From sequence record PZ445550.1: 64,000 nucleotides of DNA; one strand, given 5' to 3'. The stretch is from a phage. Below the pieces are notes generated by a model. The model was not told where the DNA came from and made no database searches. It saw only the letters and a list, made by a program, of their open reading frames with translations. Positions 4,222-61,782 of the stretch are shown here, in pieces. Position 1 is the first letter of the stretch. The number at the start of each line of letters is the position of its first letter. Made by a program: the position numbers and the translations under genes.

Positions 4222-5598
4222 ATGACTATTGATATTAATAAGCTGAAAGAAGAACTTGGTCTGGGTGATCTGGCTAAATCTCTGGAAGGTCTTACCGCTG
4301 CTCAGAAAGCTGCAGAAGCTAAGCGCCTACGTGAAGAGCAGGAAGAAAAAGAACTGGCTCGTATGAATGACCTGGTTTCCAAAGCTGTTGGTGAAGATCG
4401 TAAAAAACTGGAAGAAGCTCTGGACTTGGTTAAGTCTCTGGATGAAAAATCTAAGAAGAGCGCAGAACTGTTTGCACAGACGGTAGAAAAACAACAGGAA
4501 ACCATCGTTGGTCTTCAGGATGAAATTAAATCTCTGTTGGCAGCTCGTGAAGGTCGTTCCTTCGTTGGTGACAGTGTAGCTAAAGCACTGTATGGTACTC
4601 AGGAAGCTTTTGAAGATGAAGTTGAAAAACTTGTACTGTTAGCTTATGTAACAGAGAAGGGCGTATTTGAAACTGAACACGGTAAAAACCACCTTAAAGC
4701 AGTAAATAACTCTTCTTCAGTAGAAGTTTCTAGCGAATCTTACGAAACTATTTTCTCCCAGCGTATCATTCGTGACCTTCAGAAGGAACTGGTAGTTGGT
4801 GCACTGTTTGAAGAACTGCCAATGTCCAGCAAGCTGCTGACTATGCTAGTAGAGCCAGAAGCTGGTAAAGCTACTTGGGTAGATGCTTCTACTTATGGTA
4901 CTGATGCTACTACTGGTAATGAAGTTAAAGGTGCTCTGACTGAGATTCAGTTTAAGACCTACAAACTAGCTGCTAAATCCTTCATTACTGATGAAACTGA
5001 AGAAGATGCAATCTTCTCCCTGCTGCCACTGTTACGCAAGCGTCTGATTGAAGCACATGCTGTTTCTATCGAAGAAGCCTTCATGACTGGTGATGGTTCT
5101 GGTAAGCCGAAAGGTTTGCTGACTCTTGCTAGTGAAGATAGTGCTAAAGTTACTACTGAAGCTAAAGCTGATGGTTCTGTTCTGGTAACTGCTAAAACTA
5201 TTTCTAAGCTACGTCGTAAACTGGGTCGTCATGGTCTGAAACTGAGCAAACTGGTACTGATCGTATCTATGGATGCTTACTACGATCTGCTGGAAGATGA
5301 AGAATGGCAGGATGTTGCCCAGGTTGGTAATGATGCTGTTAAACTGCAGGGTCAGGTTGGTCGTATTTACGGTCTGCCGGTTGTAGTTTCTGAATACTTC
5401 CCAGCTAAAGCTAATTCTGCAGAGTTCGCAGTTATTGTCTATAAAGATAATTTCGTAATGCCGCGTCAGCGTGCTGTTACTGTTGAACGTGAGCGCCAAG
5501 CTGGTAAACAGCGTGATGCATACTATGTTACTCAGCGTGTTAACCTGCAACGTTACTTTGCAAATGGCGTTGTATCTGGTGCCTACGCTGCATCTTAA
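4222..5598 (+). CDS. Major capsid protein precursor
   Basis: 458 aa, same length as T5 pb8; coiled-coil scaffold-like N-terminus; E. coli-optimal codon usage; followed by a strong terminator. Confidence 0.85.
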   Translation: MTIDINKLKEELGLGDLAKSLEGLTAAQKAAEAKRLREEQEEKELARMNDLVSKAVGEDRKKLEEALDLVKSLDEKSKKSAELFAQTVEKQQETIVGLQDEIKSLLAAREGRSFVGDSVAKALYGTQEAFEDEVEKLVLLAYVTEKGVFETEHGKNHLKAVNNSSSVEVSSESYETIFSQRIIRDLQKELVVGALFEELPMSSKLLTMLVEPEAGKATWVDASTYGTDATTGNEVKGALTEIQFKTYKLAAKSFITDETEEDAIFSLLPLLRKRLIEAHAVSIEEAFMTGDGSGKPKGLLTLASEDSAKVTTEAKADGSVLVTAKTISKLRRKLGRHGLKLSKLVLIVSMDAYYDLLEDEEWQDVAQVGNDAVKLQGQVGRIYGLPVVVSEYFPAKANSAEFAVIVYKDNFVMPRQRAVTVERERQAGKQRDAYYVTQRVNLQRYFANGVVSGAYAAS

Positions 5599-5617
5599 TA
5601 CAGGCTTTTCAGCCGAT

Positions 5618-5647
5618 AAGGAGAGCTTCGGCTCTCCTTTTTTATTG
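5618..5647 (+). terminator. Rho-independent terminator after capsid gene
   Basis: Hairpin AAGGAGAGC-TTCG-GCTCTCCTT followed by a T-run. Confidence 0.7.
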
Positions 5648-5657
5648 GGAAAAATAA

Positions 5658-6170
5658 ATGCAAATCATCACAGCTGAAGATTATAGATTATATGGTGGTT
5701 TAAAACGACCTGAGTTAGAATCTGGTGTAGAAATGATGATTACTGCTGCCAATGCATTAATTACTAGCCTTCTAGGCATGGATGATGCTGATGCTGTAGA
5801 CCAATTAATCAATACAAAACCTACACGTAGAAAATATTTTTTAAGTTCACCCTCCGCTACTTCTATTACAAAGATTACTATTAATGATAAGGAAATAGAG
5901 TCAGAGCAGTATAAATTATACTCTGATGGTGTTATACTTCTTAAATTTAATCCTCCAGAAGGTTATATGGACGTAGCGTATACACAAGGTGGATTTAATC
6001 CAATGCCTGAAGACCTTAAATTAGCAGCATGTATGCTAGTAGACCATTGGCATAAGCAGGATTATCGTCAAGCTAAAACAATTGGCGGTGAAACAATAAC
6101 TTTCAATAACACTAAGTCTGGTATACCAGAACATATTCGTACCATTATTGAAGTGTATAGGAGAGTATAA
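5658..6170 (+). CDS. Head completion / head-tail connector protein (putative)
   Basis: 170-aa ORF directly after capsid gene in conserved late order. Confidence 0.45.
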   Translation: MQIITAEDYRLYGGLKRPELESGVEMMITAANALITSLLGMDDADAVDQLINTKPTRRKYFLSSPSATSITKITINDKEIESEQYKLYSDGVILLKFNPPEGYMDVAYTQGGFNPMPEDLKLAACMLVDHWHKQDYRQAKTIGGETITFNNTKSGIPEHIRTIIEVYRRV

Positions 6171-6938
6171 ATGTCTCTTTCAGATTTAGCCAGGCAAATT
6201 ATTAAGGAACAGTTAGATTCTGCCGGACGTTCTGAAAATAATAAGAATACAGTGGTATACTCCGTGGAAACAGGATTGAAAGATCCTACTAGAGATGGTA
6301 CTATTGCTCAAGTATCATTTAAATTCTCTAAACCAGTATCCCAAGATTTACTTAATATTAGAACAGCTTCTATACTAAAAGCAGTATCTTCTAATTTAGA
6401 TCTTTCTGGAGACTTAGGTGCTTTAGAGAGCCTAATACAGGCAACCGCTGGTAAAAAATCCTCTGTAGGTAAAAAACGTTCTACAGGTAGAGTACAGGTA
6501 AACTTTGGTGATCCTAGCGATGTTGAAGATGGTTATTCAGGCGCAGTAACAGGAGCTTCTGGACGCTTTGTCTCTAATAGTAACATGAAAGTTATTCTTG
6601 AACTAGTTGCTAAGGAATATCTAATTAAGGATATGAAGAAAGCAGGGGCTCCACTAAAATTTAGAACGGGTAGATTTGCTAACTCTTTAAAAATTAAAGA
6701 TGTCATGCTTAGGGATGCCGAAACTAGTAAAGGTTCCCCAGAATTAAGTGTAACATATAACTATATGACTCGTCCTTATTCAGTATTTAATCCTGCAGTA
6801 TCTACATACAGAAGGTTATCTCTAAGACCATACCCCGGTGCTAGAAATCCTCAAAAATTAATTGGGGAGGCAATAGCAAAAGCAGCACGAGACCTGATTC
6901 ATTCCAGATATAAAATTAAGGTCAATCAAGGAACCTAG
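6171..6938 (+). CDS. Head-tail joining / tail completion protein (putative)
   Basis: 255-aa ORF, abuts the upstream gene, between capsid and tail tube genes. Confidence 0.4.
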   Translation: MSLSDLARQIIKEQLDSAGRSENNKNTVVYSVETGLKDPTRDGTIAQVSFKFSKPVSQDLLNIRTASILKAVSSNLDLSGDLGALESLIQATAGKKSSVGKKRSTGRVQVNFGDPSDVEDGYSGAVTGASGRFVSNSNMKVILELVAKEYLIKDMKKAGAPLKFRTGRFANSLKIKDVMLRDAETSKGSPELSVTYNYMTRPYSVFNPAVSTYRRLSLRPYPGARNPQKLIGEAIAKAARDLIHSRYKIKVNQGT

Positions 6939-6941
6939 TAA

Positions 6942-7427
6942 ATGGATCATAGAACAAGTATTGCACAAGCCCTGGTGGACCGAATCTCTAAACAAATGGA
7001 TGGTTCTCAACCAGATGAATATTTTAATAACCTCTATGGAAATGTTTCTCGTCAAACTTATAAATTTGAAGAGATACGAGAGTTTCCTTATGTAGCAGTT
7101 CATATAGGAACTGAAACTGGTCAATATCTTCCATCAGGTCAACAGTGGATGTTTTTAGAACTTCCAATACTGGTGTACGATAAAGAAAAAACAGATATCC
7201 AAGAGCAACTTGAAAAACTCGTAGCGGATATAAAAACCGTTATTGACACAGGTGGAAATTTAGAATATACTGTTAGTAAACCTAATGGATCGACCTTCCC
7301 ATGTGAAGCAACTGATATGGTAATTACATCAGTTAGTACAGATGAGGGTCTACTGGCCCCATACGGTTTAGCGGAAATAAATGTAACAGTGCGCTATATG
7401 CCCCCTAAACGTGCATTACGCAGATAA
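6942..7427 (+). CDS. Tail terminator protein (putative)
   Basis: 161-aa ORF immediately upstream of the tail tube gene. Confidence 0.4.
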   Translation: MDHRTSIAQALVDRISKQMDGSQPDEYFNNLYGNVSRQTYKFEEIREFPYVAVHIGTETGQYLPSGQQWMFLELPILVYDKEKTDIQEQLEKLVADIKTVIDTGGNLEYTVSKPNGSTFPCEATDMVITSVSTDEGLLAPYGLAEINVTVRYMPPKRALRR

Positions 7428-7453
7428 GTTACAGATTAGGAGAATATAAATAA

Positions 7454-8863
7454 ATGTCTTTACAACTATTACGTAATACTCGAATCTTCGTGTCTACTGT
7501 TAAGACTGGTCATACCAAAGAAAACACGCAAGAGATTCTAGTTCAGGATGATATTTCTTGGGGTCAGGACAGTAATTCCACAGATATTACTGTTAACGAA
7601 GCAGGTCCACGACCAACTCGTGGTTCAAAACGTTTCAATGACTCCTTAAATGCTGCTGAATGGAGTTTCTCAACATATATCCTCCCATATAAGGATAAAA
7701 CCACTAATAAGCAAATAGTTCCTGACTATATGTTATGGCATGCTCTTTCTAGTGGTAAAGCTCTAAACTTAGATGGTGACACTGGGGCACATAATAACGA
7801 AACTAACTTCATGGTTAACTTTAAAGATAATTCTTATCATGAGTTAGCTATGTTGCATATTTACATCCTTACTGATAAAGCATGGAGTTATATTGACTCT
7901 TGCCAGATTAATCAGGCAGAAGTAAACGTTGATATCGAGGATATTGGTCGTGTAACTTGGTCTGGTAATGGTAATCAGCTAATTCCACTGGATACTCAGC
8001 CCTTTGATCCAGATGTGGTAGGTATTGATGATGAAACTTATATGACTATTCAGAGTTCTTATATTAAGAATAAGTTAACTATCCTAAAAATTAAGGATAT
8101 GGATTCTGATAAGGCATATGACATTCCTATTACTGGCGGTACTTTTACCATTAATAACAATATCACGTACCTAACTCCAAATATTATGTCTCGTGTAAAT
8201 ATTCCAATTGGTTCATTTACGGGTGCATTTGAATTAACTGGCTCTCTAACGGCGTATCTTAATGATAAAGCTCTCGGATCTATGGATTTATATAAAGATC
8301 TGATTAAAACCCTTAAGGTAGTTAACAAGTTTGAGATTGCACTCATTCTTGGTGGTGAATATGATGATGAGCGTCCAGCAGCTGTACTAGTTGCTAAACA
8401 AGCCCACGTTAACATTCCTACTATTGAGACTGATGATGTACTTGGTACTTCAGTAGAGTTTAAGGCTATCCCTACAGATTTGGATACTGGTGATGAAGGT
8501 TATCTTGGATTTTCTAACAAGTATACAAAAACTACTGTAGCTAATCTGATTGCTACAGGAGATGGTGCTAAAACCCCACCAAAACTGGTGGAGTCAATCA
8601 CAGTTAAATCTGCTAGTGATGCTACTTCTGTAGAAAATAGTAATACTCTACAGATGTCTGTCGAAGTAACTCCATCGGATGCCACTAATAGCGCAGTAAC
8701 TTGGTCTATTTCTAGTGGTAACGCAGCTACAATTGATGCAGAATCTGGACTATTAACTGCTGATGCCTCTAAAACAGGCGCTGTTACTGTAAAAGCTGTA
8801 GCTAAAGACGGTTCTGGTGTAGAAGGTACTAAGAGCATTACAGTTACTACTTCTGGTGGCTAA
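7454..8863 (+). CDS. Major tail tube protein (pb6-like) with C-terminal Ig-like domain
   Basis: 469 aa (T5 pb6 is 464); C-terminal Big2-like segment (TVKSASDATSVENSNTLQMSVEVTPSDATNSAVTWSISSG...). Confidence 0.75.
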   Translation: MSLQLLRNTRIFVSTVKTGHTKENTQEILVQDDISWGQDSNSTDITVNEAGPRPTRGSKRFNDSLNAAEWSFSTYILPYKDKTTNKQIVPDYMLWHALSSGKALNLDGDTGAHNNETNFMVNFKDNSYHELAMLHIYILTDKAWSYIDSCQINQAEVNVDIEDIGRVTWSGNGNQLIPLDTQPFDPDVVGIDDETYMTIQSSYIKNKLTILKIKDMDSDKAYDIPITGGTFTINNNITYLTPNIMSRVNIPIGSFTGAFELTGSLTAYLNDKALGSMDLYKDLIKTLKVVNKFEIALILGGEYDDERPAAVLVAKQAHVNIPTIETDDVLGTSVEFKAIPTDLDTGDEGYLGFSNKYTKTTVANLIATGDGAKTPPKLVESITVKSASDATSVENSNTLQMSVEVTPSDATNSAVTWSISSGNAATIDAESGLLTADASKTGAVTVKAVAKDGSGVEGTKSITVTTSGG

Positions 8864-8867
8864 TTAA

Positions 8868-9770
8868 ATGTACTACTCTCTAATGCGAGAGTCAAAAGTT
8901 ATAGTTGAGTATGATGGTAGGGCATTTCATTTTGATGCCCTATCAAACTATGATATACAGACTTCCTACGAGGAATTCAAGACTCTTCGTAGGACTGTAC
9001 ATCGTAGAACTAACTATGCAGACTCTATTATAAATGCCCAAACTCCTTCCTCTATTTCACTAGCAGTAAATTTTAGTAATACTCTTACTGAAGCTAACTT
9101 TTTTGAGTGGTTAGGATTTGATAGGAAGGGCAATACTTTTTTATTACCATTATATAGTATTAATATTGAGCCTATTATGTTCAATATTTATATAGTGAAT
9201 AAAGATAACAACTGCGTATACTTTGAAAACTGCTATGTATCTACGATAGATTTTTCTTTAGACAAAAATATACCAATTCTTAATATTGGTATTGAATCGG
9301 GGAAATTCTCTGAAGTATCCACATTCACAGAGGCAGCTTCTATTATACAAGGTGAAGTAATGTCTTATAGCCCAGTAATAGCATATACCAATGGCAGTAC
9401 ATTACCTGGTCTTATTTCTGCTTCTCTATCTTTCCAGCAGCAATGTTCCTGGAGAGAAGATAAGAGTGTTTTCGACATAAATAAAATTTATAATAATAAA
9501 AGAGCCTATGTAAACGAAATGAATGCTTCGGCAACCATTTCCCTATACTACTTAAAACGTTTTGCGGGAGATATGGTTTACAATATTGAACCGGAAACAG
9601 ACGTACCTTTAACTATAAGAAATAATAATATTTCTATAGATTTTCCTTCAGCACGTATTACAAAACGCCTAGATTTCTCAGATGTGTATAGAGTTGAGTG
9701 GGATATTATACCTACTGCTTCTTCGGACCCAGTGAGAATAGATTTCTTTGGAGAAACTAAAAATGATTAA
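8868..9770 (+). CDS. Hypothetical tail-associated protein
   Basis: 300-aa ORF between tail tube and chaperone genes. Confidence 0.4.
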   Translation: MYYSLMRESKVIVEYDGRAFHFDALSNYDIQTSYEEFKTLRRTVHRRTNYADSIINAQTPSSISLAVNFSNTLTEANFFEWLGFDRKGNTFLLPLYSINIEPIMFNIYIVNKDNNCVYFENCYVSTIDFSLDKNIPILNIGIESGKFSEVSTFTEAASIIQGEVMSYSPVIAYTNGSTLPGLISASLSFQQQCSWREDKSVFDINKIYNNKRAYVNEMNASATISLYYLKRFAGDMVYNIEPETDVPLTIRNNNISIDFPSARITKRLDFSDVYRVEWDIIPTASSDPVRIDFFGETKND

Positions 9771-10167
9771 TTTAAAAGATATTACTCTTGATACCCGTAC
9801 TATTACTCTTTCTTACCCAGGTATGCCTAACTTTAAATTAGAACTCAATTATATGTCTCGTGCTACCTCTAAACGTGTTATTTCTTCTGCTAAACGCGAT
9901 GAATGGGTTAATGGTACACTGATGCAAGTACAAGATGATGACAAGTTCATTGAAGCATTTGTTGATGCAGCTATTAAAGGCTGGACTGGCCTAACAGTAG
10001 GTGATGTTGAAAAACTAATGTTAATTGAAACTGATGCTGACCCTGCTACTGAAGTTCCTTTTACCCGCGATAATGCTGTAATGCTTATGCAGAACTCTGC
10101 TGCGTTTGATTCTTGGATCAACCAGACAGTGTTCCACTTAGACACTTTTCGTAGCTCAAAAGCGTAA
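9763..10167 (+). CDS. Tail assembly chaperone (putative)
   Basis: ORF just upstream of tape measure; start taken at ATG 9763, overlapping the upstream stop. Confidence 0.45.
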   Translation: MINLKDITLDTRTITLSYPGMPNFKLELNYMSRATSKRVISSAKRDEWVNGTLMQVQDDDKFIEAFVDAAIKGWTGLTVGDVEKLMLIETDADPATEVPFTRDNAVMLMQNSAAFDSWINQTVFHLDTFRSSKA

Positions 10168-10228
10168 AGAACTCCTAGATGCTGTTGCTGATTTTGCAGA
10201 TAAATGTATTAAAAGCTCAGCATCTAAA

Positions 10229-10597
10229 ATGACTAAACAACAATATTTAATACTTTGTGAGTCGATGGGTATTGAGCCTGATCCTAAAGCTATGCCTGTC
10301 GAACTTGAAGATTTTCCTCCTATTGTAGCTATTAGCATGAATATTTATAATAGTCTAGTTGACTGCTTCATACCAGGTGACTTTCCTATTTTTATAGGTA
10401 AAGACAAAGCTGCTTTAGGTGTTTTATTTGATATTTATGGGATCACTGACCCTATAGAAAAAGAATTCGTTCTACACATTATCAATATATTTGATGCTAA
10501 AGCTGTAGATGCTGCACGTAAACGCGCCGAGAAGCATAAACCGCAAAACGGAAGAATACCTAACGTTAAGCCACATGCTAGATCTCGAGCACGGTAA
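10229..10597 (+). CDS. Tail assembly chaperone, second ORF (possible frameshift partner)
   Basis: Reading frame is open from 10142, overlapping the end of the preceding chaperone ORF with no in-frame ATG; position before tape measure. Confidence 0.4.
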   Translation: MTKQQYLILCESMGIEPDPKAMPVELEDFPPIVAISMNIYNSLVDCFIPGDFPIFIGKDKAALGVLFDIYGITDPIEKEFVLHIINIFDAKAVDAARKRAEKHKPQNGRIPNVKPHARSRAR

Positions 10598-10632
10598 AAG
10601 TTTCCTCCAATGGGCGTTCCACGATGAGGCTT

Positions 10633-10665
10633 GGCTCTGGGTGATTTGCCCAGAGCCTTTTTTAT
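10633..10665 (+). terminator. Rho-independent terminator before tape measure gene
   Basis: Hairpin GGCTCTGGG-TGATTTG-CCCAGAGCC followed by TTTTTT. Confidence 0.65.
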
Positions 10666-10680
10666 TGGGAAAAATAAAAT

Positions 10681-13600
10681 ATGACTGATAAGCTAATACG
10701 AGAATTATTAATAGACGTTAAACAGAAGGGGGCAACTCGTACTGCAAAGTCTATTGAAAACGTAGCTGATGCATTAGAGAACGCTGCTGCTGCTTCTGAA
10801 CTAACAAATGAACAGTTAGGTAAAATGCCCAAAACTCTATACTCCATTGAGAGGGCAGCAGATAGAGCAGCAAAAAGTCTTACTAAAATGCAAGCTAGTA
10901 GAGGTATGGCTGGTATCACTAAATCCATTGATGGTATTGGTGATAAGCTAGATTACCTGGCTATCCAACTTATTGAAGTAACAGATAAACTAGAAATTGG
11001 ATTCGACGGAGTTTCTAGATCTGTTAAAGCAATGGGTAATGATGTTGCAGCTGCAACAGAGAAAGTTCAAGATAGATTGTATGATACCAATAGAGTTTTA
11101 GGGGGTACAACTAGAGGTTTTAATGATACTGCGGGTGCTGCTGGTAGAGCCTCTAGAGCTATTGGTAATACTTCTGGTTCAGCACGTGGTGCTACTCGTG
11201 ACTTTGCGGCAATGGCTAAAGTTGGCGGTGGCTTACCATTATTATATGCTGCTATAGCTTCTAACATCTTCGTTCTGCAATCTGCATTTGAACAACTTAA
11301 ACTAGGTGATCAGTTAAATCGTCTAGAAAAATTTGGTGTTATAGTTGGTACTCAGACTGGTACTCCAGTACAAACTCTAGCTAGATCCTTACAAGAAGCT
11401 GCTGGATATGCAATATCCTTTGAAGAAGCAATGAGACAGGCGTCCTCTGCTTCCGCTTATGGGTTTGATGCAGAACAACTTAATAAATTTGGTCTAGTAG
11501 CTCGCCGTGCTGCTGCTGTTCTTGGTGTTGATATGACTGATGCACTTAATCGTGTAATCAAAGGTGTATCTAAACAAGAAATTGAACTTCTGGATGAACT
11601 TGGCGTTACTATCCGTCTTAATGATGCTTATGCCGATTATGTTAAACAATTAAATGCGGCAAATACTGGTATAACATATAATGTTAATAGCCTTACTACT
11701 TTCCAGAAACAGCAAGCGTACGCCAACGCTGTTATAGCGGAGTCTACCAAACGCTTTGGATATCTAGATCAAGTATTGCGTGCTACCCCATGGGAACAGT
11801 TTGCTGCTAATGCTGATGCTGCATTAAGAACTATACAACAAGCTGCTGCTAAATATTTGGGTCCAGTCATTGATGCTATTAATACAGTGTTCTATACTTC
11901 ACAAGCCTCTGTATCAGCAGAAGCTGCTAGGGCACAGGAAAAAACCAATAGGCAGATAGATCCTACTAATGTGGGTGCTGTTGCTTTAAGTTTGGCTGCT
12001 TCTGAGGAAGGGTATAACAAAGCCTTAGATATGTATAAGGAATCGCTTGATAAGCGTAATAAACTTAAATCAGAATTTGACAAACGAATGGAGCAGGCAG
12101 ATTTTTACACAAAACTAGCAATACGACAAGTGGGAGAAGGTATTCCTATTGGTATTGCTGCTGCTGGTGCCTCTGAGGCTAATAAAAAATTCGTAGAAGA
12201 AACTGCCGCTATGGGTCTGCAAGTAACCAGATTAGGCAAAGAAGTAGAAGATTCTACCGAAAACCTTAATGCCTGGAAATCAGCCTATCAAGCTGCTGGA
12301 GCTGCTGCTGCAAAAGCTAATCCAGAGTTCCAAAAACAGATTAATCTACAAAAAGATACTACAGATCCAGATGCTGTATATGACTTTAACTCTACAGTAT
12401 TAAAAGGATTAACTGAACAACAGAAGGCATACAATCAAACTAAGAAAACTGCTAGTGATTTAGCTAATGATATACAGAACGTTGCACAGAATACAGATAC
12501 TGCCGCAAAAACTAGTGCTACTTTAGCAGATGCTATAAAAAATATAGAATCCTTGTCTCAGGGTACTGGAAAGAGTGCCGATGAGTACGTTAAGAATCTT
12601 AACTTAGGTTATAACACACTGTCTGAAATGAAAACTGCTTCTCAAGCCCTGTCTGAATATGTTAAATTAACAGGTAATGAGACTAAAAACCAACTAGCGG
12701 TCCAACAAAAGATAGCAGATGTATATAACCAGACTAAGGACAAGGAAAAAGCCCAAGAAGCTGGTAGACGTTTAGAGCTACAACAGTTAGAAGAACAAGA
12801 GGCTGCCCTACGTCGTGTTCTTCAAACAAACCAGGGAAATAAAGCTATTGAAGGTGAAATAGCTAAGTTACAGTTAGAAAAGCTCAAACTTACTAATCAG
12901 GGTATGGAAGCCCAGAAGAAGGTTAAAGACTATACAGATAAGATTCTAGGGGTAGATCGTGAAATAGCACTATTAAACGATCGTACTATGACTACTACAC
13001 AATATAGATTAGCCCAACTAAAACTGGAACTAACTATAGAGAAAGAGAAGTATGAATGGTATTCAAAACAAGCTGATAAGCAGAAGGAAGCTGAACAGTC
13101 TAGACGTGCTCAAGCGCAAATAAGTAGAGAACTATGGGAAGCAGAAAAGCAGGCTACTGCCACTCACGTATCTGCTCTTATGGAAGCTCTAGAGGTTAGC
13201 CAGACATCACGAAATGTTACTGGTCAGGCTCAGATTCTCACTGAAAGATTATCTGTTCTGCAAGAACAATTAGAGTTATCCAAGGGTAATACTGAGGAGG
13301 AAATTAAATATCGTAATGAGATCTATAAAACTTCAGCTGCTTTAGAACAACTTAGAAAACAAAGAGATAGCCAGATGCAGCAACAGGTAGGATCTTCAGT
13401 AGGTGCTGTATACACTCCTACAACTGGACTATCTGGAGAAGATAAAGATTTTGCCGATATGCAAAATAGACTGGCCTCTTATGATCAAGCAATCTCTAAA
13501 CTATCTGAGTTAAACTCTGAAGCAACTGCCGTAGCTCAAAGCATGGGTAATCTCACTAATGCTATGATCCAGTTCTCTCAGGGATCTCTAGATACTACTT

Positions 13601-14361
13601 CTCTAATTGCTTCTGGTATGCAGACTGTATCTTCTATGATTCAGTTCAGTACTAGTCAACAAGTTAGTGCTATTGATGCAGCTATTGCAGCAGAACAAAA
13701 ACGAGATGGTAAATCAGAAGCATCTAAAGCTAAATTGAAGAAGTTAGAAGCGGAAAAGCTGAAAATCCAGCAAGATGCGGCTAAGAAGCAGATTATCATC
13801 CAAACTGCAGTAGCAGTTATGCAGGCAGCCACAGCCGTTCCGTATCCGTTCTCTATTCCGTTAATGGTGGCGGCTGGATTAGCAGGTGCGTTGGCACTAG
13901 CACAAGCATCTTCTGCTTCTGGCATGTCAAGTATTGCTGATTCTGGAGCTGATACAACTAGTTACTTAACCCTGGGAGAGCGACAGAAAAACATAGATGT
14001 ATCTATGTCTGCTAATGCTGGAGAGTTATCCTATATTCGAGGTGATCAGGGTATAGGAGGTGCTAACTCTTTTGTACCTCGTGCCGAGGGCGGTAATATG
14101 TATCCAGGAGTTAGTTATCAGATGGGTGAACATGGTACGGAAGTAATTACCCCTATGGTTCCTATGAAAGCTACACCTAACGATGAGCTTAAAAACTCGT
14201 CTAGCTCAACTTCAGGAAGACCTATCGTCCTGAATATTAGTGCTATGGATGCTGCAAGTTTTAGGGAGTTTGCCTCTAGTAATAGCGGTGCTCTGAGAGA
14301 CGCAGTAGAATTAGCTTTAAATGAAAATGGTGCTAGTCTTAAAACATTAGGAAATTCTTAA
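10681..14361 (+). CDS. Tail tape measure protein (pb2-like)
   Basis: 1226 aa (T5 pb2 is 1219); long coiled-coil-rich ORF with hydrophobic segment near the C-terminus. Confidence 0.9.
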   Translation: MTDKLIRELLIDVKQKGATRTAKSIENVADALENAAAASELTNEQLGKMPKTLYSIERAADRAAKSLTKMQASRGMAGITKSIDGIGDKLDYLAIQLIEVTDKLEIGFDGVSRSVKAMGNDVAAATEKVQDRLYDTNRVLGGTTRGFNDTAGAAGRASRAIGNTSGSARGATRDFAAMAKVGGGLPLLYAAIASNIFVLQSAFEQLKLGDQLNRLEKFGVIVGTQTGTPVQTLARSLQEAAGYAISFEEAMRQASSASAYGFDAEQLNKFGLVARRAAAVLGVDMTDALNRVIKGVSKQEIELLDELGVTIRLNDAYADYVKQLNAANTGITYNVNSLTTFQKQQAYANAVIAESTKRFGYLDQVLRATPWEQFAANADAALRTIQQAAAKYLGPVIDAINTVFYTSQASVSAEAARAQEKTNRQIDPTNVGAVALSLAASEEGYNKALDMYKESLDKRNKLKSEFDKRMEQADFYTKLAIRQVGEGIPIGIAAAGASEANKKFVEETAAMGLQVTRLGKEVEDSTENLNAWKSAYQAAGAAAAKANPEFQKQINLQKDTTDPDAVYDFNSTVLKGLTEQQKAYNQTKKTASDLANDIQNVAQNTDTAAKTSATLADAIKNIESLSQGTGKSADEYVKNLNLGYNTLSEMKTASQALSEYVKLTGNETKNQLAVQQKIADVYNQTKDKEKAQEAGRRLELQQLEEQEAALRRVLQTNQGNKAIEGEIAKLQLEKLKLTNQGMEAQKKVKDYTDKILGVDREIALLNDRTMTTTQYRLAQLKLELTIEKEKYEWYSKQADKQKEAEQSRRAQAQISRELWEAEKQATATHVSALMEALEVSQTSRNVTGQAQILTERLSVLQEQLELSKGNTEEEIKYRNEIYKTSAALEQLRKQRDSQMQQQVGSSVGAVYTPTTGLSGEDKDFADMQNRLASYDQAISKLSELNSEATAVAQSMGNLTNAMIQFSQGSLDTTSLIASGMQTVSSMIQFSTSQQVSAIDAAIAAEQKRDGKSEASKAKLKKLEAEKLKIQQDAAKKQIIIQTAVAVMQAATAVPYPFSIPLMVAAGLAGALALAQASSASGMSSIADSGADTTSYLTLGERQKNIDVSMSANAGELSYIRGDQGIGGANSFVPRAEGGNMYPGVSYQMGEHGTEVITPMVPMKATPNDELKNSSSSTSGRPIVLNISAMDAASFREFASSNSGALRDAVELALNENGASLKTLGNS

Positions 14362-14364
14362 AAC

Positions 14365-14396
14365 TGGAGGAGGACTTTGAGTCCTCCTTTTCTTTA
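14365..14396 (+). terminator. Rho-independent terminator after tape measure gene
   Basis: Hairpin AGGAGGACT-TTG-AGTCCTCCT followed by a T-run. Confidence 0.65.
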
Positions 14397-14414
14397 TGGA
14401 AAAATAAAAATTTC

Positions 14415-14443
14415 TTGATAAAATTTTCTAATACTATTATAAT
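14415..14443 (+). promoter_or_regulatory. Sigma70-like promoter upstream of distal tail protein gene
   Basis: TTGATA, 17-bp spacer, TATAAT; then AGGAG ribosome-binding site and ATG at 14471. Confidence 0.45.
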
Positions 14444-14470
14444 AATCATATCTAAGAGGAGAAATTAACT

Positions 14471-15085
14471 ATGAGATTACCAGACCCATACACGAATCCA
14501 GAACTTTCAGGCTTAGGATTCGAAAGTGTTAACCTGATTGATAATGACCCCGTAATTCGTGATGAGTTACCAAATGGTAAAGTTAACGAAGTTAAGGTAT
14601 CCGCTCAATACTGGGGTATAAATATTTCTTATCCAGAATTATTTCCAGATGAATATAGTGTTCTAGATGCTTTTATTCTAGAATACAAAAGGACTGGTAG
14701 TTATATAGATGTTATACTACCACAATATGAGGCCTTTAGAGTTAGAGGTAATACTAGTCTAGTAAATATACCTGCTGGGCAGAAGGGTTCTAATATAACT
14801 ATGGATACTAAAGGGATCCTCACAGGTACTCCAAAACCTGGAGACCTATTTAAGCTGTCCAACCACCCAAAAGTGTATAAAATAACATCATTTAACAAAT
14901 CAGGTAACACATGGTCTATAAATTTATACCCTGATTTATTTGTAACTACTACTGGAGCTGAGAAGCCAGTATTTAATGGAATACTCTTTAGAACAAAACT
15001 CATGAATGGTGATGCTTTCGGATCTACATTAAATAATAACGGGACATATTCCGGCATCTCATTAAACTTACGGGAAAGTCTATGA
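14471..15085 (+). CDS. Distal tail protein (pb9-like)
   Basis: 204 aa, same length as T5 pb9; directly follows tape measure. Confidence 0.75.
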   Translation: MRLPDPYTNPELSGLGFESVNLIDNDPVIRDELPNGKVNEVKVSAQYWGINISYPELFPDEYSVLDAFILEYKRTGSYIDVILPQYEAFRVRGNTSLVNIPAGQKGSNITMDTKGILTGTPKPGDLFKLSNHPKVYKITSFNKSGNTWSINLYPDLFVTTTGAEKPVFNGILFRTKLMNGDAFGSTLNNNGTYSGISLNLRESL

Positions 15086-19996: not shown

Positions 19997-20419
19997 ATGA
20001 GTACTGAAAATAGAGTTATAGATCTAGTAATAGATGAAAAAGTACCTTATGGTTTAATGATGCAATTCCTAGACGTTGATGATAGTACTTATCCACCAAC
20101 TAATACTCCAGTTAATCTAACTGGATACTCTCTAAGGGGGACTATAAAAAGTAGCTTAGATGAGAATGCGGAAACCTTAGCATCATTCACTACTAAAATT
20201 ATTGATGCTGCTCAAGGGGCTGTGGCTATAAGTTTACCTGTAGAATCCGTGGAAAATATAGGAGCTAAAGCATCTAAAGATAGGGATAAATATAACCCTC
20301 GTCAGCGATTCGCAGGATACTATGATATAATTATGACTAGAGATGTTATAGGATCTGCAATTAGCTCCTTTCGTATAATGGAGGGTAAAGTATTTATCAG
20401 TGATGGGGTAACTAAATAA
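19997..20419 (+). CDS. Collar protein (p132-like)
   Basis: 140 aa, same length as T5 p132; immediately upstream of tail fibre gene. Confidence 0.55.
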
Positions 20420-22773
20420 TGGCAGTAACTACTAAGATTATTGTACAACAGATATTAAATATTGATGATACTAAAGCTACTGCTAGTAAATTTCCTAGAT
20501 ACACTGTAACTCTAGGTAACTCTATTAGCTCTATTACTGCAAGTGAATTAGTATCCTCTATTGAGGCTGCGGCTAAATCAGCAGCAGCTGCAAAAGACTC
20601 TGAGATAGCTGCTAAGACTTCAGAGCTTAACGCTAAAGAGTCTGAGCAGGAAGCTGCTATTTCTGCTGGAGCTTCCGAAGCTTCTGCTACTCAGTCCGCT
20701 ACGTCTGCTACTCAGTCCGCTACGTCTGCTACTCAGTCCGCTACGTCTGCTACTAAATCTGCAGAATCAGCAGCCGCAGCAAAAACATCTGAGACTAATG
20801 CTAAGGCTAGTGAAACTAAGGCTAAAACTTCGGATACTAATGCTAAGACTAGTGAGACTAATACTAAGGCTAGTGAAACTAAGGCTAAAACTTCGGAGAC
20901 TAATGCTAAGACTAGTGAGACTAATGCTGCTGCCTCAGCTGCTGCTGCAAAAATTAGTGAAACTAAGGCCGCTGAATCTGCTGCCTCTGCTGCAGACTCT
21001 AAGGAGTTTAGAGATGAAGCAGAGACATTTGCTAGACAAGCTGCAGCATCTGCATCAGCTGCTAAGACTAGTGAGACTAATGCAAAAACGTCGGAAACTA
21101 GCGCAAAGTCTAGTGAGACAAAGGCTAAAGCTAGTGAAACTAATGCAGCTAGTTCTGCAACCTCAGCTAGCCAATCAGTAACCACTATTCAAGGTTTAAA
21201 ATCAGATGTTGAGAAACTAAAATCTGATACCCAAACCATCAAGAATAGTGCTGTGTCCGAAACAACCGCGTTAAAAGATCAAGCAGCTACTTCTGCAACT
21301 AATGCTGCAAACTCTGCTACTGAAGCTGGAAAACAAGCTACTAATGCTGCTATTAGTGCTAAAACTGCTAAGACCGAGGCTGATCGTTCGAAAACTGAAG
21401 CTGATAGATCAGAAGCTGCTGCCAATGCTACTCCTGATATTCAGCCTCTTCCAGATGTTTGGGCACCCCTTAATGACTCTCTAGATATGATTACTGGTTT
21501 TTCTCCTTCATATAAAAAGATAGTAATTGGAGATGATGAAATAACCATCCCTAGTGATAAAGCTATAAAATTTAAACGTGCTTCTGCTGCTACATACGTA
21601 GATAAATCTGGCATGTATAGTGTAGCAGAAACTGATGAACCTAGATTTGAGAAATTAGGTATGCTAATAGAGGGGCAACGAACTAACCTTCTAATTAATA
21701 GTACTAACCCAAGTAAATGGAATAAATCCTCAAACCTTGAACTATCAGCATCTGGTAACGATACTTATGGCTTTCCTTTCGGTAAGTTTACAGTAAAACC
21801 TGCTTTAATAGGACAAACATCAGCTATTAATATAGTAACAGTATCTGGAAGTAAGGGTTTTGATGTTACTGGAAGTGAAAAGTATGTAACTATATCCTGT
21901 AGGGTACAAAGTGGTACTGCAAATTTAAGATGCAGACTTAGATTTGAAAACTATGACGGGTCTGTTTATACTTTTTTAGGTGATGCATACCTGAACCTAT
22001 CTACTCTCGAGATTGAATACACTGGGACTAGGGCTAGCGATATAACAGCTAGTGCAGTAAAGGATTATGGTAGTAAGTGGATATACTACCAGGCTACAAT
22101 TAAATCCCAAGATACTGATAGTATGATTGGTGCTATGGTTCAGTATGCACCTGCTAAGGGTCTTGGTACATTAGAAGGTGATTATATTTACGTATCTACT
22201 CCCCAAGTAGAAGGAGGTCTACGTGCGTCGTCTTTTATTATAACAGAAACTGTACCTGTTACAAGAGCTAGTGATATAGTTACTTTTCCTATTAAAAATA
22301 ATTGGTGTTCACCAGCATTAAGTGCTTTAGTAGAGGTTAATACTAATTGGGATGGTGGAGATATGCCAAATAGAACTGGTGCAGCAAGAATATTAAATGT
22401 ATCAACCGTCGGAGACGCTACAAATATAACAGATGAAAGTTATATGTACTTGGGCTTTGTTTCCTACGGTAATAAAGCAATTATTACAAATGGTAAAGGT
22501 ACAGCTCCAGAGATCAAAAGTGACTTAGCAAGATCTGGTAGGCATAATATCATTGGGTTTATATTTAAAGATAATAGAGAATTACAGGTTGTAGTTGATG
22601 GTGCTCTAGGCCCGGTGGCTACATCTCCCTATTATAGACAAAAATATAGTGATGGATTAATAAATATAGGCGGACAAACCACAGCAGGTACACGTCATAT
22701 GTTTGGACATATAAGAAACCTTCGTATTTGGCACAGGGCTCTTACTGCTAAACAGGTAAAGGAGTATATATGA
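20419..22773 (+). CDS. ltfA: L-shaped tail fibre protein A (no C-terminal chaperone domain)
   Basis: N-terminus resembles T5 pb1 (ITASKFPRYTV...SSITASE...); long Ala/Thr/Ser repeat block (SATQSAT..., AKTSETNAK...); 784 aa versus about 1396 for T5 pb1. Confidence 0.75.
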   Translation: MAVTTKIIVQQILNIDDTKATASKFPRYTVTLGNSISSITASELVSSIEAAAKSAAAAKDSEIAAKTSELNAKESEQEAAISAGASEASATQSATSATQSATSATQSATSATKSAESAAAAKTSETNAKASETKAKTSDTNAKTSETNTKASETKAKTSETNAKTSETNAAASAAAAKISETKAAESAASAADSKEFRDEAETFARQAAASASAAKTSETNAKTSETSAKSSETKAKASETNAASSATSASQSVTTIQGLKSDVEKLKSDTQTIKNSAVSETTALKDQAATSATNAANSATEAGKQATNAAISAKTAKTEADRSKTEADRSEAAANATPDIQPLPDVWAPLNDSLDMITGFSPSYKKIVIGDDEITIPSDKAIKFKRASAATYVDKSGMYSVAETDEPRFEKLGMLIEGQRTNLLINSTNPSKWNKSSNLELSASGNDTYGFPFGKFTVKPALIGQTSAINIVTVSGSKGFDVTGSEKYVTISCRVQSGTANLRCRLRFENYDGSVYTFLGDAYLNLSTLEIEYTGTRASDITASAVKDYGSKWIYYQATIKSQDTDSMIGAMVQYAPAKGLGTLEGDYIYVSTPQVEGGLRASSFIITETVPVTRASDIVTFPIKNNWCSPALSALVEVNTNWDGGDMPNRTGAARILNVSTVGDATNITDESYMYLGFVSYGNKAIITNGKGTAPEIKSDLARSGRHNIIGFIFKDNRELQVVVDGALGPVATSPYYRQKYSDGLINIGGQTTAGTRHMFGHIRNLRIWHRALTAKQVKEYI
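20693..20765 (+). repeat. 21-bp direct tandem repeat (3 copies plus partial) inside ltfA
   Basis: TCTGCTACTCAGTCCGCTACG repeated head-to-tail; encodes SATQSAT heptads. Confidence 0.85.
20806..20931 (+). repeat. 63-bp direct tandem repeat (2 copies) inside ltfA
   Basis: GCTAGTGAAACTAAGGCTAAAACTTCGGA(T/G)ACTAATGCTAAGACTAGTGAGACTAAT... duplicated with a few mismatches. Confidence 0.8.
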
Positions 22774-61512: not shown

Positions 61513-61537
61513 AGGGGGCGAAAGCCCCTCTTATTTG
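61513..61537 (+). terminator. Hairpin terminator (GGGGC-GAAA-GCCCC plus T-rich tail)
   Basis: GC stem with GAAA loop followed by TCTTATTT. Confidence 0.45.
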
Positions 61538-61545
61538 GAGAAACT

Positions 61546-61782
61546 ATGCGTAATTTTGTTGCAAAAAATGATTTTAACCGTGCTAGCACTCATAAGTCAG
61601 CTAGAGACTACACACGGCTTTCTAGCCATGAGGTAATGGATACTTGTTATGAAGAGCTAGAGGATAGCTGGGATGAATGGCCAGATTTCTTTATGGAAGA
61701 AAACTGGGATGTTAGTGAGGATATGCTTCCTGGTTTTAAAGACCCCAAGAAGTGGGAGTCTATTAAAGAGACAGCTTTTTAA
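61546..61782 (+). CDS. Hypothetical acidic protein
   Basis: 78-aa ORF. Confidence 0.4.
   Translation: MRNFVAKNDFNRASTHKSARDYTRLSSHEVMDTCYEELEDSWDEWPDFFMEENWDVSEDMLPGFKDPKKWESIKETAF

Follow-up and report, generated by a model that had tools for sequence, protein, structure and literature searches.

We consider it likely that the short repeated box found at two places in the late region of this phage (sites 1 and 2) is a junction of about 20 nt between two ordinary signals, namely, the distal U-tract of a terminator (UUUUUUAUU) and the initiation region of the next gene, and that this arrangement probably keeps low-copy proteins scarce. The whole 64-kb stretch of DNA that was analyzed (here called the window) matches Escherichia phage KookSpook (T5-like, Demerecviridae). 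We observed the anatomy and conservation of sites 1 and 2, a pattern of Shine-Dalgarno (SD) substitutions among related phages, and the absence of promoters at both sites. The view of the box as a discrete conserved or new regulatory element was not supported. The features of the two sites and of a third terminator are as follows.

4222–5598, + strand: major capsid protein gene, 458 amino acids (aa), upstream of site 1 (open reading frame [ORF] list; "major head protein" in PP925842.1)
5603–5614, + strand: candidate small upstream hairpin GGCT-TTTC-AGCC, then a conserved GCCGA (fold; weak support)
5618–5639, + strand: hairpin of predicted terminator T1, AAGGAGAGC-UUCG-GCUCUCCUU, 9 bp, UUCG tetraloop (terminator scan, fold)
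5638–5646, + strand: T1 U-tract TTTTTTATT, the last 6 nt of which are box nucleotides 1 to 6 (read from the sequence)
5647–5650, + strand: weak SD GGGA of the adaptor gene (anti-SD duplex energy)
5651–5657, + strand: A-rich spacer AAAATAA ahead of the adaptor start codon (sequence)
5658–6170, + strand: head-tail adaptor gene, 170 aa, equivalent to T5 p144 (ORF list, annotation)
10229–10597, + strand: tail assembly chaperone gene, upstream of site 2 (ORF list, annotation)
10633–10657, + strand: hairpin of predicted terminator T2, GGCTCTGGG-TGATTTG-CCCAGAGCC (terminator scan, fold, covariation)
10658–10666, + strand: T2 U-tract TTTTTTATT, overlapping the start of the second box copy (sequence)
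10667–10670, + strand: weak SD GGGA of the tape-measure gene, with its spacer at 10671–10680 (anti-SD duplex energy)
10681–14361, + strand: tape measure protein gene, 1226 aa (ORF list, annotation)
14366–14390, + strand: hairpin of predicted terminator T3, GGAGGAGGAC-TTT-GAGTCCTCCTTT, after the tape-measure gene (terminator scan, fold)

The box had been recognized in a sequence-only reading as an identical 18-mer (TTTATTGGGAAAAATAAA) at 5641–5658 and 10661–10678, each copy following a GC hairpin and T-run and ending at or 2 nt before an ATG. The terminator scan and the folds bore this out, and the stretch shared identically by the two sites proved to be longer than the 18-mer, at 24 nt (CCTTTTTTATTGGGAAAAATAAA). 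Both exact copies are on the + strand, directly 3' of a strong GC hairpin (the predicted terminators at 5618–5639 and 10633–10657). At site 1, between the major capsid and head-tail adaptor genes, the box shares its final A with the ATG at 5658; at site 2, between the tail chaperone and tape-measure genes, the box ends 2 nt ahead of the ATG at 10681. No further copy was present elsewhere in the 64-kb window with up to 3 mismatches allowed, a tolerance at which shuffled sequences gave a mean of 0.34 matches. The repeat is not due to chance (see its conservation in close relatives, below), and comparison of eight genera showed the box to be a composite of the distal U-tract of the terminator (T6ATT), a weak SD (GGGA), and an A-rich spacer.

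All three terminator predictions consist of a GC-rich stem-loop and a U-rich tract of about 7 to 9 nt (terminator scan), and the hairpins had z scores of about -3.2 to -3.3 (RNA folding; T1 region, -21.2 kcal/mol, z = -3.2). The T1, T2, and T3 hairpins begin 20, 36, and 5 nt, respectively, past the stops at 5598, 10597, and 14361, in genes of the same orientation. Phages of Klebsiella, Proteus, and Providencia had the identical T1 stem, the Serratia phage had one longer by 1 bp, and Vibrio phages kept the hairpin structure with entirely different stem sequences; the changes seen in the T1 stem included a G-C to A-U swap (L128) and an extra G-C pair (Slocum). For T2, compensatory (double) changes were found in 5 of 9 hairpin pairs among the nine phages compared. 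In all genera examined, T5-6 followed by a few A/T bases was kept at the position of the site 1 U-tract, and a hairpin with a T-run was kept at the T3 position after the tape-measure gene. The GGC...GCC pairing of the small hairpin ahead of T1 was also kept in relatives, with one U-A to A-U swap in PSTCR5. As a candidate phage-specific sequence, the T1 hairpin was rejected: about 50 viral contigs other than T5 contained the exact 22-mer, with an SD and an ATG often coming next, and a permuted-stem control hairpin gave 85 matches, so that the T1 sequence is that of a generic UUCG-loop terminator. Rfam covariance models searched against 5000–15000 returned sub-threshold noise only, and the literature searched yielded no T5 transcript-mapping papers or transcript-end data for T5-like phages.

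The second half of each box has the placement of an SD, with the GGGA core 8 nt (site 1) or 11 nt (site 2) before the ATG. Its duplex with the anti-SD is weak (-4.2 kcal/mol; median, -5.6), ranking 53rd (adaptor) and 52nd (tape measure) among 77 genes, and SDs stronger than GGGA precede the genes of the capsid, tube, and distal tail proteins. An A-rich context ahead of the start codon is common among the late genes of this phage. In close relatives, the box varied from GGG to GG or AGG and from A5 to A4 or A6, with 8 to 12 nt between GGG and ATG, which is variation of the sort that a ribosome-binding site would tolerate. In other Demerecviridae, the position of the box GGG was occupied by a canonical or near-canonical SD, namely, GGAGG and AGGAG (JSF10), AGGTGA (RP7), GGGG and GGAG (Thalassa, pVp-1), AAGGAG and AGGAGG (D51), or GAGG (L274); AGG and GG were also seen at the SD position of homologous sites in relatives, and the substitutes in other genera were GGAGG, GGGG, GGAG, AAGGAG, or GAGG at site 1 and AGGAG, AGGTGA, GGAG, or GGA at site 2. 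The SD always started 9 to 12 nt after the hairpin in the Demerecviridae compared. As in SD initiation regions generally, a purine core that can pair with the 3' end of 16S rRNA lies 8 to 12 nt before the AUG at sites 1 and 2, in an unstructured A/U-rich context; unlike the usual regions, these sites have a short core (GGGA) fused to a terminator tail, so that the U-tract forms the 5' side of the initiation region. The arrangement has been annotated before: the curated GenBank records of the related phages Sealy and Slocum carry "terminator" and "ribosome_binding_site" annotations at exactly these positions.

A second suggestion of the sequence-only reading was that the box may be a late-promoter element, and the reading placed a close variant after the third terminator. 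As a promoter, or as part of a cassette for transcription re-initiation, the box would start new transcripts of the downstream gene. The location of the box directly upstream of late genes would suit a promoter, as would the similar A-rich tract that lies just upstream of a real-looking promoter at site 3. At sites 1 and 2, however, the ATG comes 0 to 2 nt after the box, leaving no space for -35 and -10 hexamers and a 5' leader. The scan listed no sigma-70 promoter in or after IG1 or IG2, where the best -35/-10 match (8/12) was inside the downstream coding sequence. T5 late genes use ordinary sigma-70 promoters (PMC7472727), described with -35, -10, and UP elements (PMC7472727, supplement). 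The box is also unlike the T4 late-promoter motif TATAAATA and has just two copies in 64 kb holding about 20 late genes. We regard a promoter function of the box as highly improbable. The promoters that the scan did find, and the elements around site 3, are as follows.

7243–7271, + strand: putative intragenic sigma-70-type promoter TTGACA-17-TATACT (scan, 11/12), about 200 nt upstream of the tail-tube gene (7454)
14391–14414, + strand: T3 tail running into an AT-rich, UP-element-like tract (the "variant box"; sequence, TCTTTATGGAAAAATAAAAA = 14391–14410)
14415–14443, + strand: putative sigma-70-type promoter TTGATA-17-TATAAT of the distal tail protein operon (scan, 11/12)
14456–14461, + strand: strong SD GAGGAG of the distal tail protein gene, ATG at 14471 (-9.1 kcal/mol)

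The third site exists, but the string given for it had been slightly miscopied; the actual sequence (TCTTTATGGAAAAATAAAAA) matches the box only with two 1-nt gaps, and its ATG (14471) lies 60 nt past the variant, with a near-consensus promoter in between, two points absent from the sequence-only reading. The 22 nt ahead of the -35 hexamer are 86% A+T, and other genera have a similar AT-rich tract of other sequence; the promoter itself scored 11/12 at the same place in six of the eight genera. The "variant" is a different thing, namely, a terminator tail and, after it, an AT-rich tract that lies upstream of a conserved sigma-70 promoter. What it has in common with the box is that a T-rich tail gives way to A-rich upstream sequence. 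Site 3 alone resembles the T5 early and late sigma-70 promoters with a UP element (PMC7472727), in that TTGATA-17-TATAAT follows the AT-rich tract and is conserved across genera, whereas sites 1 and 2 have no -35/-10 hexamers and their A-rich part is a translational spacer. The promoter at 7243–7271 lies inside the tail-terminator gene; an equivalent with at least 11/12 matches was present at the same relative position in seven of eight phages (9/12 in JSF10), with a different spacer sequence.

To what extent the box is conserved as a unit was assessed by a motif search in close relatives (sampled via the adaptor protein) and by a cross-genus comparison covering eight genera. The motif search, proposed earlier as a check, found the exact 18-mer in most close relatives (24 of 28 at site 1 and 24 of 27 at site 2). 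Other genera had canonical or near-canonical SDs at the GGG position, and T5 site 2 lacked the 3' half of the box. Across enterobacterial-phage genera, the last 45 nt of IG1 had 82 to 98% identity versus 57 to 71% in the flanks, and IG2 had 66 to 75% versus 51 to 64%. Both cassettes exceed the adjacent coding DNA in conservation, to a degree beyond the strict need of a generic terminator and ribosome-binding site. The tails of sites 1 and 2 also resemble each other within other genomes.

These properties count against a simple junction and bear on another explanation, in which the box is a shared operator (RNA or DNA) that puts the adaptor and tape-measure genes under the common control of one trans-acting factor, such as a phage translational repressor resembling RegA of T4, an antiterminator, or an endoribonuclease. 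The identity of the two tails over 24 nt could point to such a factor, and the conservation of both cassettes beyond their coding flanks, the likeness of the two sites within each genome, and an additional conserved block upstream of T2 (see below) agree with it. As in the T4 RegA operators, an AU-rich sequence common to more than one mRNA abuts the AUG; unlike them, the box shows no more cross-genus conservation than the U-tract and SD require. To our knowledge, there is no known RegA-like factor in T5-like phages. Against a shared operator, cross-genus conservation of the box ended with T6ATTGG, homopolymer indels were tolerated, and the window held just two copies. A hairpin or palindromic operator was rejected: the box alone folded without significant structure (-1.9 and -2.4 kcal/mol; z = -0.09 and -0.86), and the inverted repeat TTTATT-N6-AATAAA was not conserved, its 3' arm being lost in Sealy, Slocum, and RP7. 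At site 2 of T5, a 250-aa ORF is inserted directly after TTTTTTATT, the box is otherwise missing, and the start of the tape-measure gene overlaps the stop codon of the inserted ORF; the halves of the box are thus separable, and the box is dispensable there. We consider a shared operator quite unlikely.

Three further ideas were tried and discarded. The inserted T5 ORF was rejected as a homolog of the additional gene present at this position in Vibrio phages, as the two had no similarity. Coding, either by KookSpook CDS0186 (window 10575–10688, a small annotated ORF across T2 and the box) or by a mini-ORF (MGVPR), was excluded as the reason for conservation because close relatives differ by 1-nt indels (GGG versus GGGG) and other genera have lost the ATG. 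The site 1 cassette did not behave as a linker for module exchange, as protein identity fell on both sides with no junction-specific discontinuity.

The region between the chaperone and tape-measure genes contains one more conserved element.

10603–10624, + strand: conserved noncoding block TCCTCCAATGGGCGTTCCACGA, unique in the window

In the alignment, this block was conserved from E. coli phages to Vibrio phages, and 1-nt indels in close relatives exclude that it is coding. RNAalifold supported no structure in the block. The block was rejected as a widespread motif, since its matches outside Demerecviridae were chance matches in GC-rich coding DNA. The whole region of about 85 nt might be a family-wide cis-regulatory RNA, in which the block (TCCTC(C)A..GGGCRTTCCACGAG), the T2 hairpin, and the U-tract/SD tail are read by a phage or host factor that sets tape-measure expression; we think this unlikely. 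If it were true, the presence of the same 24-nt tail at the adaptor gene would imply joint control of the two genes, and the region would amount to more than a passive terminator and ribosome-binding site.

With the terminator and initiation-region junction as the preferred explanation, late transcripts begun upstream would mostly terminate at T1 (past the capsid gene) and T2 (past the tail-tube and chaperone genes), and a minority would read through. The adaptor and tape-measure genes would be expressed only from this read-through RNA, because the gap from hairpin to ATG is only about 18 to 23 nt and has no promoter. On the read-through RNA, the weak SD, which lies in unstructured U/A-rich sequence immediately 3' of the hairpin, would allow ribosomes to initiate independently, and attenuation and the weak SD would jointly keep the low-copy proteins scarce in comparison with the capsid and tube proteins. 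Downstream transcription would be restored by the conserved sigma-70 promoters at 7243–7271, ahead of the tube gene, and at 14415–14443, past T3. Termination efficiency, read-through, and the effect on translation are what we infer from the arrangement of the sites.

The T5 virion contains 775 copies of the capsid protein, 12 of the adaptor, and 120 of the tube protein (PMC11313276), numbers that agree with this explanation. The genes ahead of sites 1 and 2 encode high-copy proteins or share a transcription unit with genes that do. The tape measure protein is commonly described as a trimer. A role in stoichiometry, as first suggested for a composite terminator/re-initiation cassette, is plausible, given that the products of the downstream genes are low-copy proteins and that these genes lack promoters of their own; the predicted terminators fit that suggestion, and the cassette plausibly lowers the expression of the downstream structural genes. 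What did not stand is the box as a discrete element, given its separable parts and the SD substitutions.

A precedent is the intrinsic terminator T-phi of T7, which lies between genes 10 and 11, past the major capsid gene, and attenuates the downstream late genes. As with T-phi, a GC-rich hairpin and U-tract directly follow the gene of the most abundant structural protein, and promoterless downstream genes for low-copy proteins would rely on read-through; unlike T-phi, the terminators here are predicted, would act on host RNA polymerase rather than a phage polymerase, and have the next ribosome-binding site starting immediately after the U-tract.

The same anatomy might serve mainly as a module for RNA processing or stability, with RNase E cutting the AU-rich single strand on read-through RNA so that the downstream mRNA is detached and the upstream mRNA retains a hairpin that protects its 3' end. 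A single-stranded U/A-rich stretch beside a stable hairpin is the usual context of RNase E, the UUCG-tetraloop hairpin of T1 is very stable, and the cassettes are strongly conserved. Here, such a module is indistinguishable from simple termination; a cut inside the box, however, would remove or damage the downstream ribosome-binding site, and we regard the module as very unlikely.

Reading the box as a junction of ordinary signals removes a false lead, as motif hunts based on the box would merely rediscover terminator tails. A by-product is a map of the late region, with T1 past the capsid gene, an intragenic promoter before the tube gene, T2 before the tape-measure gene, and T3 and a promoter before the tail-tip genes. 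The weak ribosome-binding sites of the low-copy proteins on this map would offer a simple sequence-level account of virion stoichiometry.

Box-like sequences also occurred outside T5-like phages. In an unrelated 42.6-kb phage contig (L013), the same 23 nt follow another hairpin and immediately precede the tape-measure gene of that contig, which counts against the preferred explanation; the tape-measure protein of the contig was not detectably related to that of the window, and the box was rejected as a signal specific to tape-measure genes. The match is most likely a coincidence among very many terminators. In unrelated bacterial genomes, the 21-mer had 35 occurrences, about half of which came right after other hairpins. 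Compaction of a terminator and a ribosome-binding site was also found in many unrelated phages that carry the T1 hairpin and, within the window, at 61513–61548 (+ strand) and 30183–30135 (- strand).

At window positions 5000 to 15000, the sequence was 100% identical to that of the T5-like Escherichia phage KookSpook (PP925842.1, reverse strand) and 85 to 89% identical to those of hundreds of Tequintavirus and Epseptimavirus genomes. According to the annotation and the list of open reading frames (ORFs), each site had the following neighboring genes.

Site 1: upstream, major capsid gene (4222-5598); downstream, head-tail adaptor gene (170 aa; 5658-6170).
Site 2: upstream, second tail-chaperone gene (10229-10597); downstream, tape-measure gene (10681-14361).
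Site 3: upstream, tape-measure gene; downstream, distal tail protein gene (14471).

Outside this region, the window carried 62 nt more than PP925842.1 (approximately 20940-21062) in the L-shaped tail-fibre gene, at a repetitive stretch rich in Ala and Ser. This gene was a single intact 784-aa ORF (20419-22773) in the window versus two overlapping coding sequences in PP925842.1. Thus, either the window is not byte-identical to PP925842.1 or the latter contains a frameshifting deletion.

The 18-mer (here, the box) that the sequence-only reading had reported was present in exact form at 5641-5658 and 10661-10678, with no further copy elsewhere in the window when up to three mismatches were allowed; the identical stretch shared by the two sites extended to 24 nt (CCTTTTTTATTGGGAAAAATAAA). 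As described in that reading, strong hairpins preceded both copies (T1, 5618-5639; T2, 10633-10657), and the box ended at an ATG or 2 nt short of it. Both sites had the same layout in every phage compared (Klebsiella Sealy, Serratia Slocum, Proteus RP7, Providencia PSTCR5, Vibrio JSF10, Thalassa, pVp-1, and D51), i.e., a hairpin, five or six T residues plus a few A/T bases, a purine core, a short A-rich spacer, and an ATG. The core was GGG or GGGA in T5-like phages and a canonical Shine-Dalgarno (SD) sequence in JSF10 (GGAGG and AGGAG), RP7 (AGGTGA), Thalassa and pVp-1 (GGGG and GGAG), D51 (AAGGAG and AGGAGG), and another contig, L274 (GAGG). It always started 9 to 12 nt past the hairpin, slightly farther than a terminator U-tract reaches, and the curated records of Sealy and Slocum already carry "terminator" and "ribosome_binding_site" annotations at these positions. 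At sites 1 and 2, the box is therefore a composite of a terminator tail (TTTATT), a weak SD (GGGA), and a spacer (AAAATAA). The feature is an ordinary one, already annotated in related genomes.

The view of the box as a discrete conserved element did not hold. Sealy (GGGTAAAATatg), Slocum (GGGAAAAATTCatg), and RP7 had not retained the inverted repeat TTTATT/AATAAA, and the fold of the box alone was no more stable than those of shuffled controls (z, -0.09 and -0.86). Close relatives were sampled via the adaptor protein and not via the motif (n = 28); site 1 carried the exact box in 24 of 28, and site 2 did so in 24 of 27. Deviations were of kinds that a ribosome-binding site tolerates (GGG to GG or AGG; A5 to A4 or A6; T6 to T5 or T13), and GGG-to-ATG distances were 8 to 12 nt. 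The most telling point came from site 2 of phage T5 (contig L150), where an ORF is inserted right after TTTTTTATT, the box lacks its 3' half, and the tape-measure ATG overlaps the stop codon of the inserted ORF (ATGA).

L150 (IMGVR_UViG_638276020_000001) 11020-11772: inserted ORF, 250 aa, with a Pfam CapR homology domain and a treble-clef zinc finger.

This insert was absent from KookSpook and most relatives and was unrelated to the extra gene of approximately 250 aa at the same position in Vibrio phages.

The T1 hairpin (GGAGAGC-UUCG-GCUCUCC) occurred as an exact 22-mer in approximately 50 non-T5 viral contigs, frequently with an SD and ATG within the next 20 to 30 nt, and a permuted-stem control hairpin gave 85 matches. 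T1 is thus not an unusual sequence but a UUCG-loop terminator of a generic kind, and placement of a terminator directly before a ribosome-binding site is common. Similar packing was seen in the early region at 61513-61548 (+) and 30183-30135 (-), where a GC hairpin (loop, GAAA or UUCG) ran through a U-rich tail straight into the start of the next gene; one had GGAG as its SD, and the other, preceding an HNH endonuclease gene, had no SD. In unrelated bacterial genomes, the 21-mer T6ATTGGGAAAAATAAA occurred 35 times, in roughly half of the cases right after other hairpins. The same 23 nt also lay directly upstream of the tape-measure gene of an unrelated phage contig, L013.

L013 (IMGVR_UViG_3300032255_000005, 42.6 kb) 9511-9560: a different hairpin, GCCGCTTTTAAGCGGC, then the identical TTTTTTATTGGGAAAAATAAATG, where a 639-aa tape-measure gene starts.

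The product of this gene was not detectably similar to the T5-type tape measure. Given the recurrence of the 21-mer in bacteria, the match, though striking, is probably coincidental.

T5 late genes use the sigma-70 holoenzyme and promoters with recognizable -35, -10, and UP elements (PMC7472727). Inside or just after the capsid-adaptor (IG1) and chaperone-tape measure (IG2) intergenic regions, the best -35/-10 pair matched 8 of 12 positions and fell within the downstream gene, and a general promoter scan listed nothing at sites 1 and 2; the suggested late-promoter role did not hold there. Site 3 (TCTTTATGGAAAAATAAAAA, slightly different from the string first given as a close variant) aligned with the box only via two gaps. 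It was followed by TTGATA-17-TATAAT (14415-14443) and then by a strong GAGGAG ribosome-binding site, with no directly following ATG. This promoter matched 11 of 12 positions at the same place in six of eight genera, and ahead of it lay an AT-rich tract (86% A+T in the window) whose sequence was not conserved among genera, an arrangement fitting the T5 late-promoter description. The supposed third copy is therefore another feature, the tail of the T3 terminator (hairpin, 14366-14390) running into an UP-like tract. A further candidate was intragenic.

7243-7271: near-consensus sigma-70 promoter, TTGACA-17-TATACT, inside the tail-terminator protein gene, with the tail-tube gene approximately 200 nt downstream.

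Eight phages were examined; it matched at least 11 of 12 positions in all except JSF10 (9 of 12), with varying spacer sequence, and is likely a late promoter boosting tube expression.

The GGGA SD was weak (-4.2 kcal/mol; rank 52-53 among 77 annotated genes; median, -5.6), with stronger values for capsid (-6.6), tube (-7.3), and distal tail protein (-9.1). Low-copy proteins, the adaptor and the tape measure (commonly described as a trimer), are encoded after T1 and T2, and the genes before these terminators encode, or are cotranscribed with those for, capsid and tube. Virions contain 12 adaptor, 775 capsid, and 120 tube copies (PMC11313276). Because the hairpin-ATG gap holds no promoter, the adaptor and tape-measure genes would be expressible only from read-through RNA. 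The scheme is probably one in which T1 and T2 attenuate transcription, the two genes receive read-through RNA only, and translation starts weakly and independently on it; the 7243-7271 promoter and that after T3 would bring transcription back up for genes whose products are required in abundance. Of the sequence-only reading, the observation is confirmed, and the interpretation is in part correct, as regards terminators and stoichiometry; the discrete box and late promoter are rejected.

The terminator cassettes were better conserved than the surrounding coding DNA. In comparisons of KookSpook with Sealy, Slocum, RP7, and PSTCR5, identity over the final 45 nt of IG1 was 82 to 98% versus 57 to 71% for the flanks, and the adjoining adaptor proteins were just 30 to 66% identical to that of KookSpook; IG2 was 66 to 75% identical versus 51 to 64% for its flanks. 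IG2 also contained a conserved block.

10603-10624: conserved, noncoding 22-nt block, TCCTCCAATGGGCGTTCCACGA, located after the chaperone stop codon and before T2.

Unique in the window, this block was conserved across Demerecviridae, in phages of E. coli through to those of Vibrio; its consensus was TCCTC(C)A-N-GGGC(G/A)TTCCACGAG, and it included an anti-SD-like CCUCC. It is noncoding, because close relatives had 1-nt indels. It had no supported secondary structure or Rfam match, and matches outside Demerecviridae were attributed to chance. Given the block, the likeness of the two tails within the genome, and the excess conservation, there is a small chance of IG1 and IG2 being read by a trans-acting factor.

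The tail-chaperone ORFs at 9763-10167 and 10229-10597 lay in different frames. In several relatives, tblastn matches to the second started before its annotated ATG, and the pair overlapped in Thalassa; the 9763-10597 arrangement suggests a G/GT-type programmed frameshift product.
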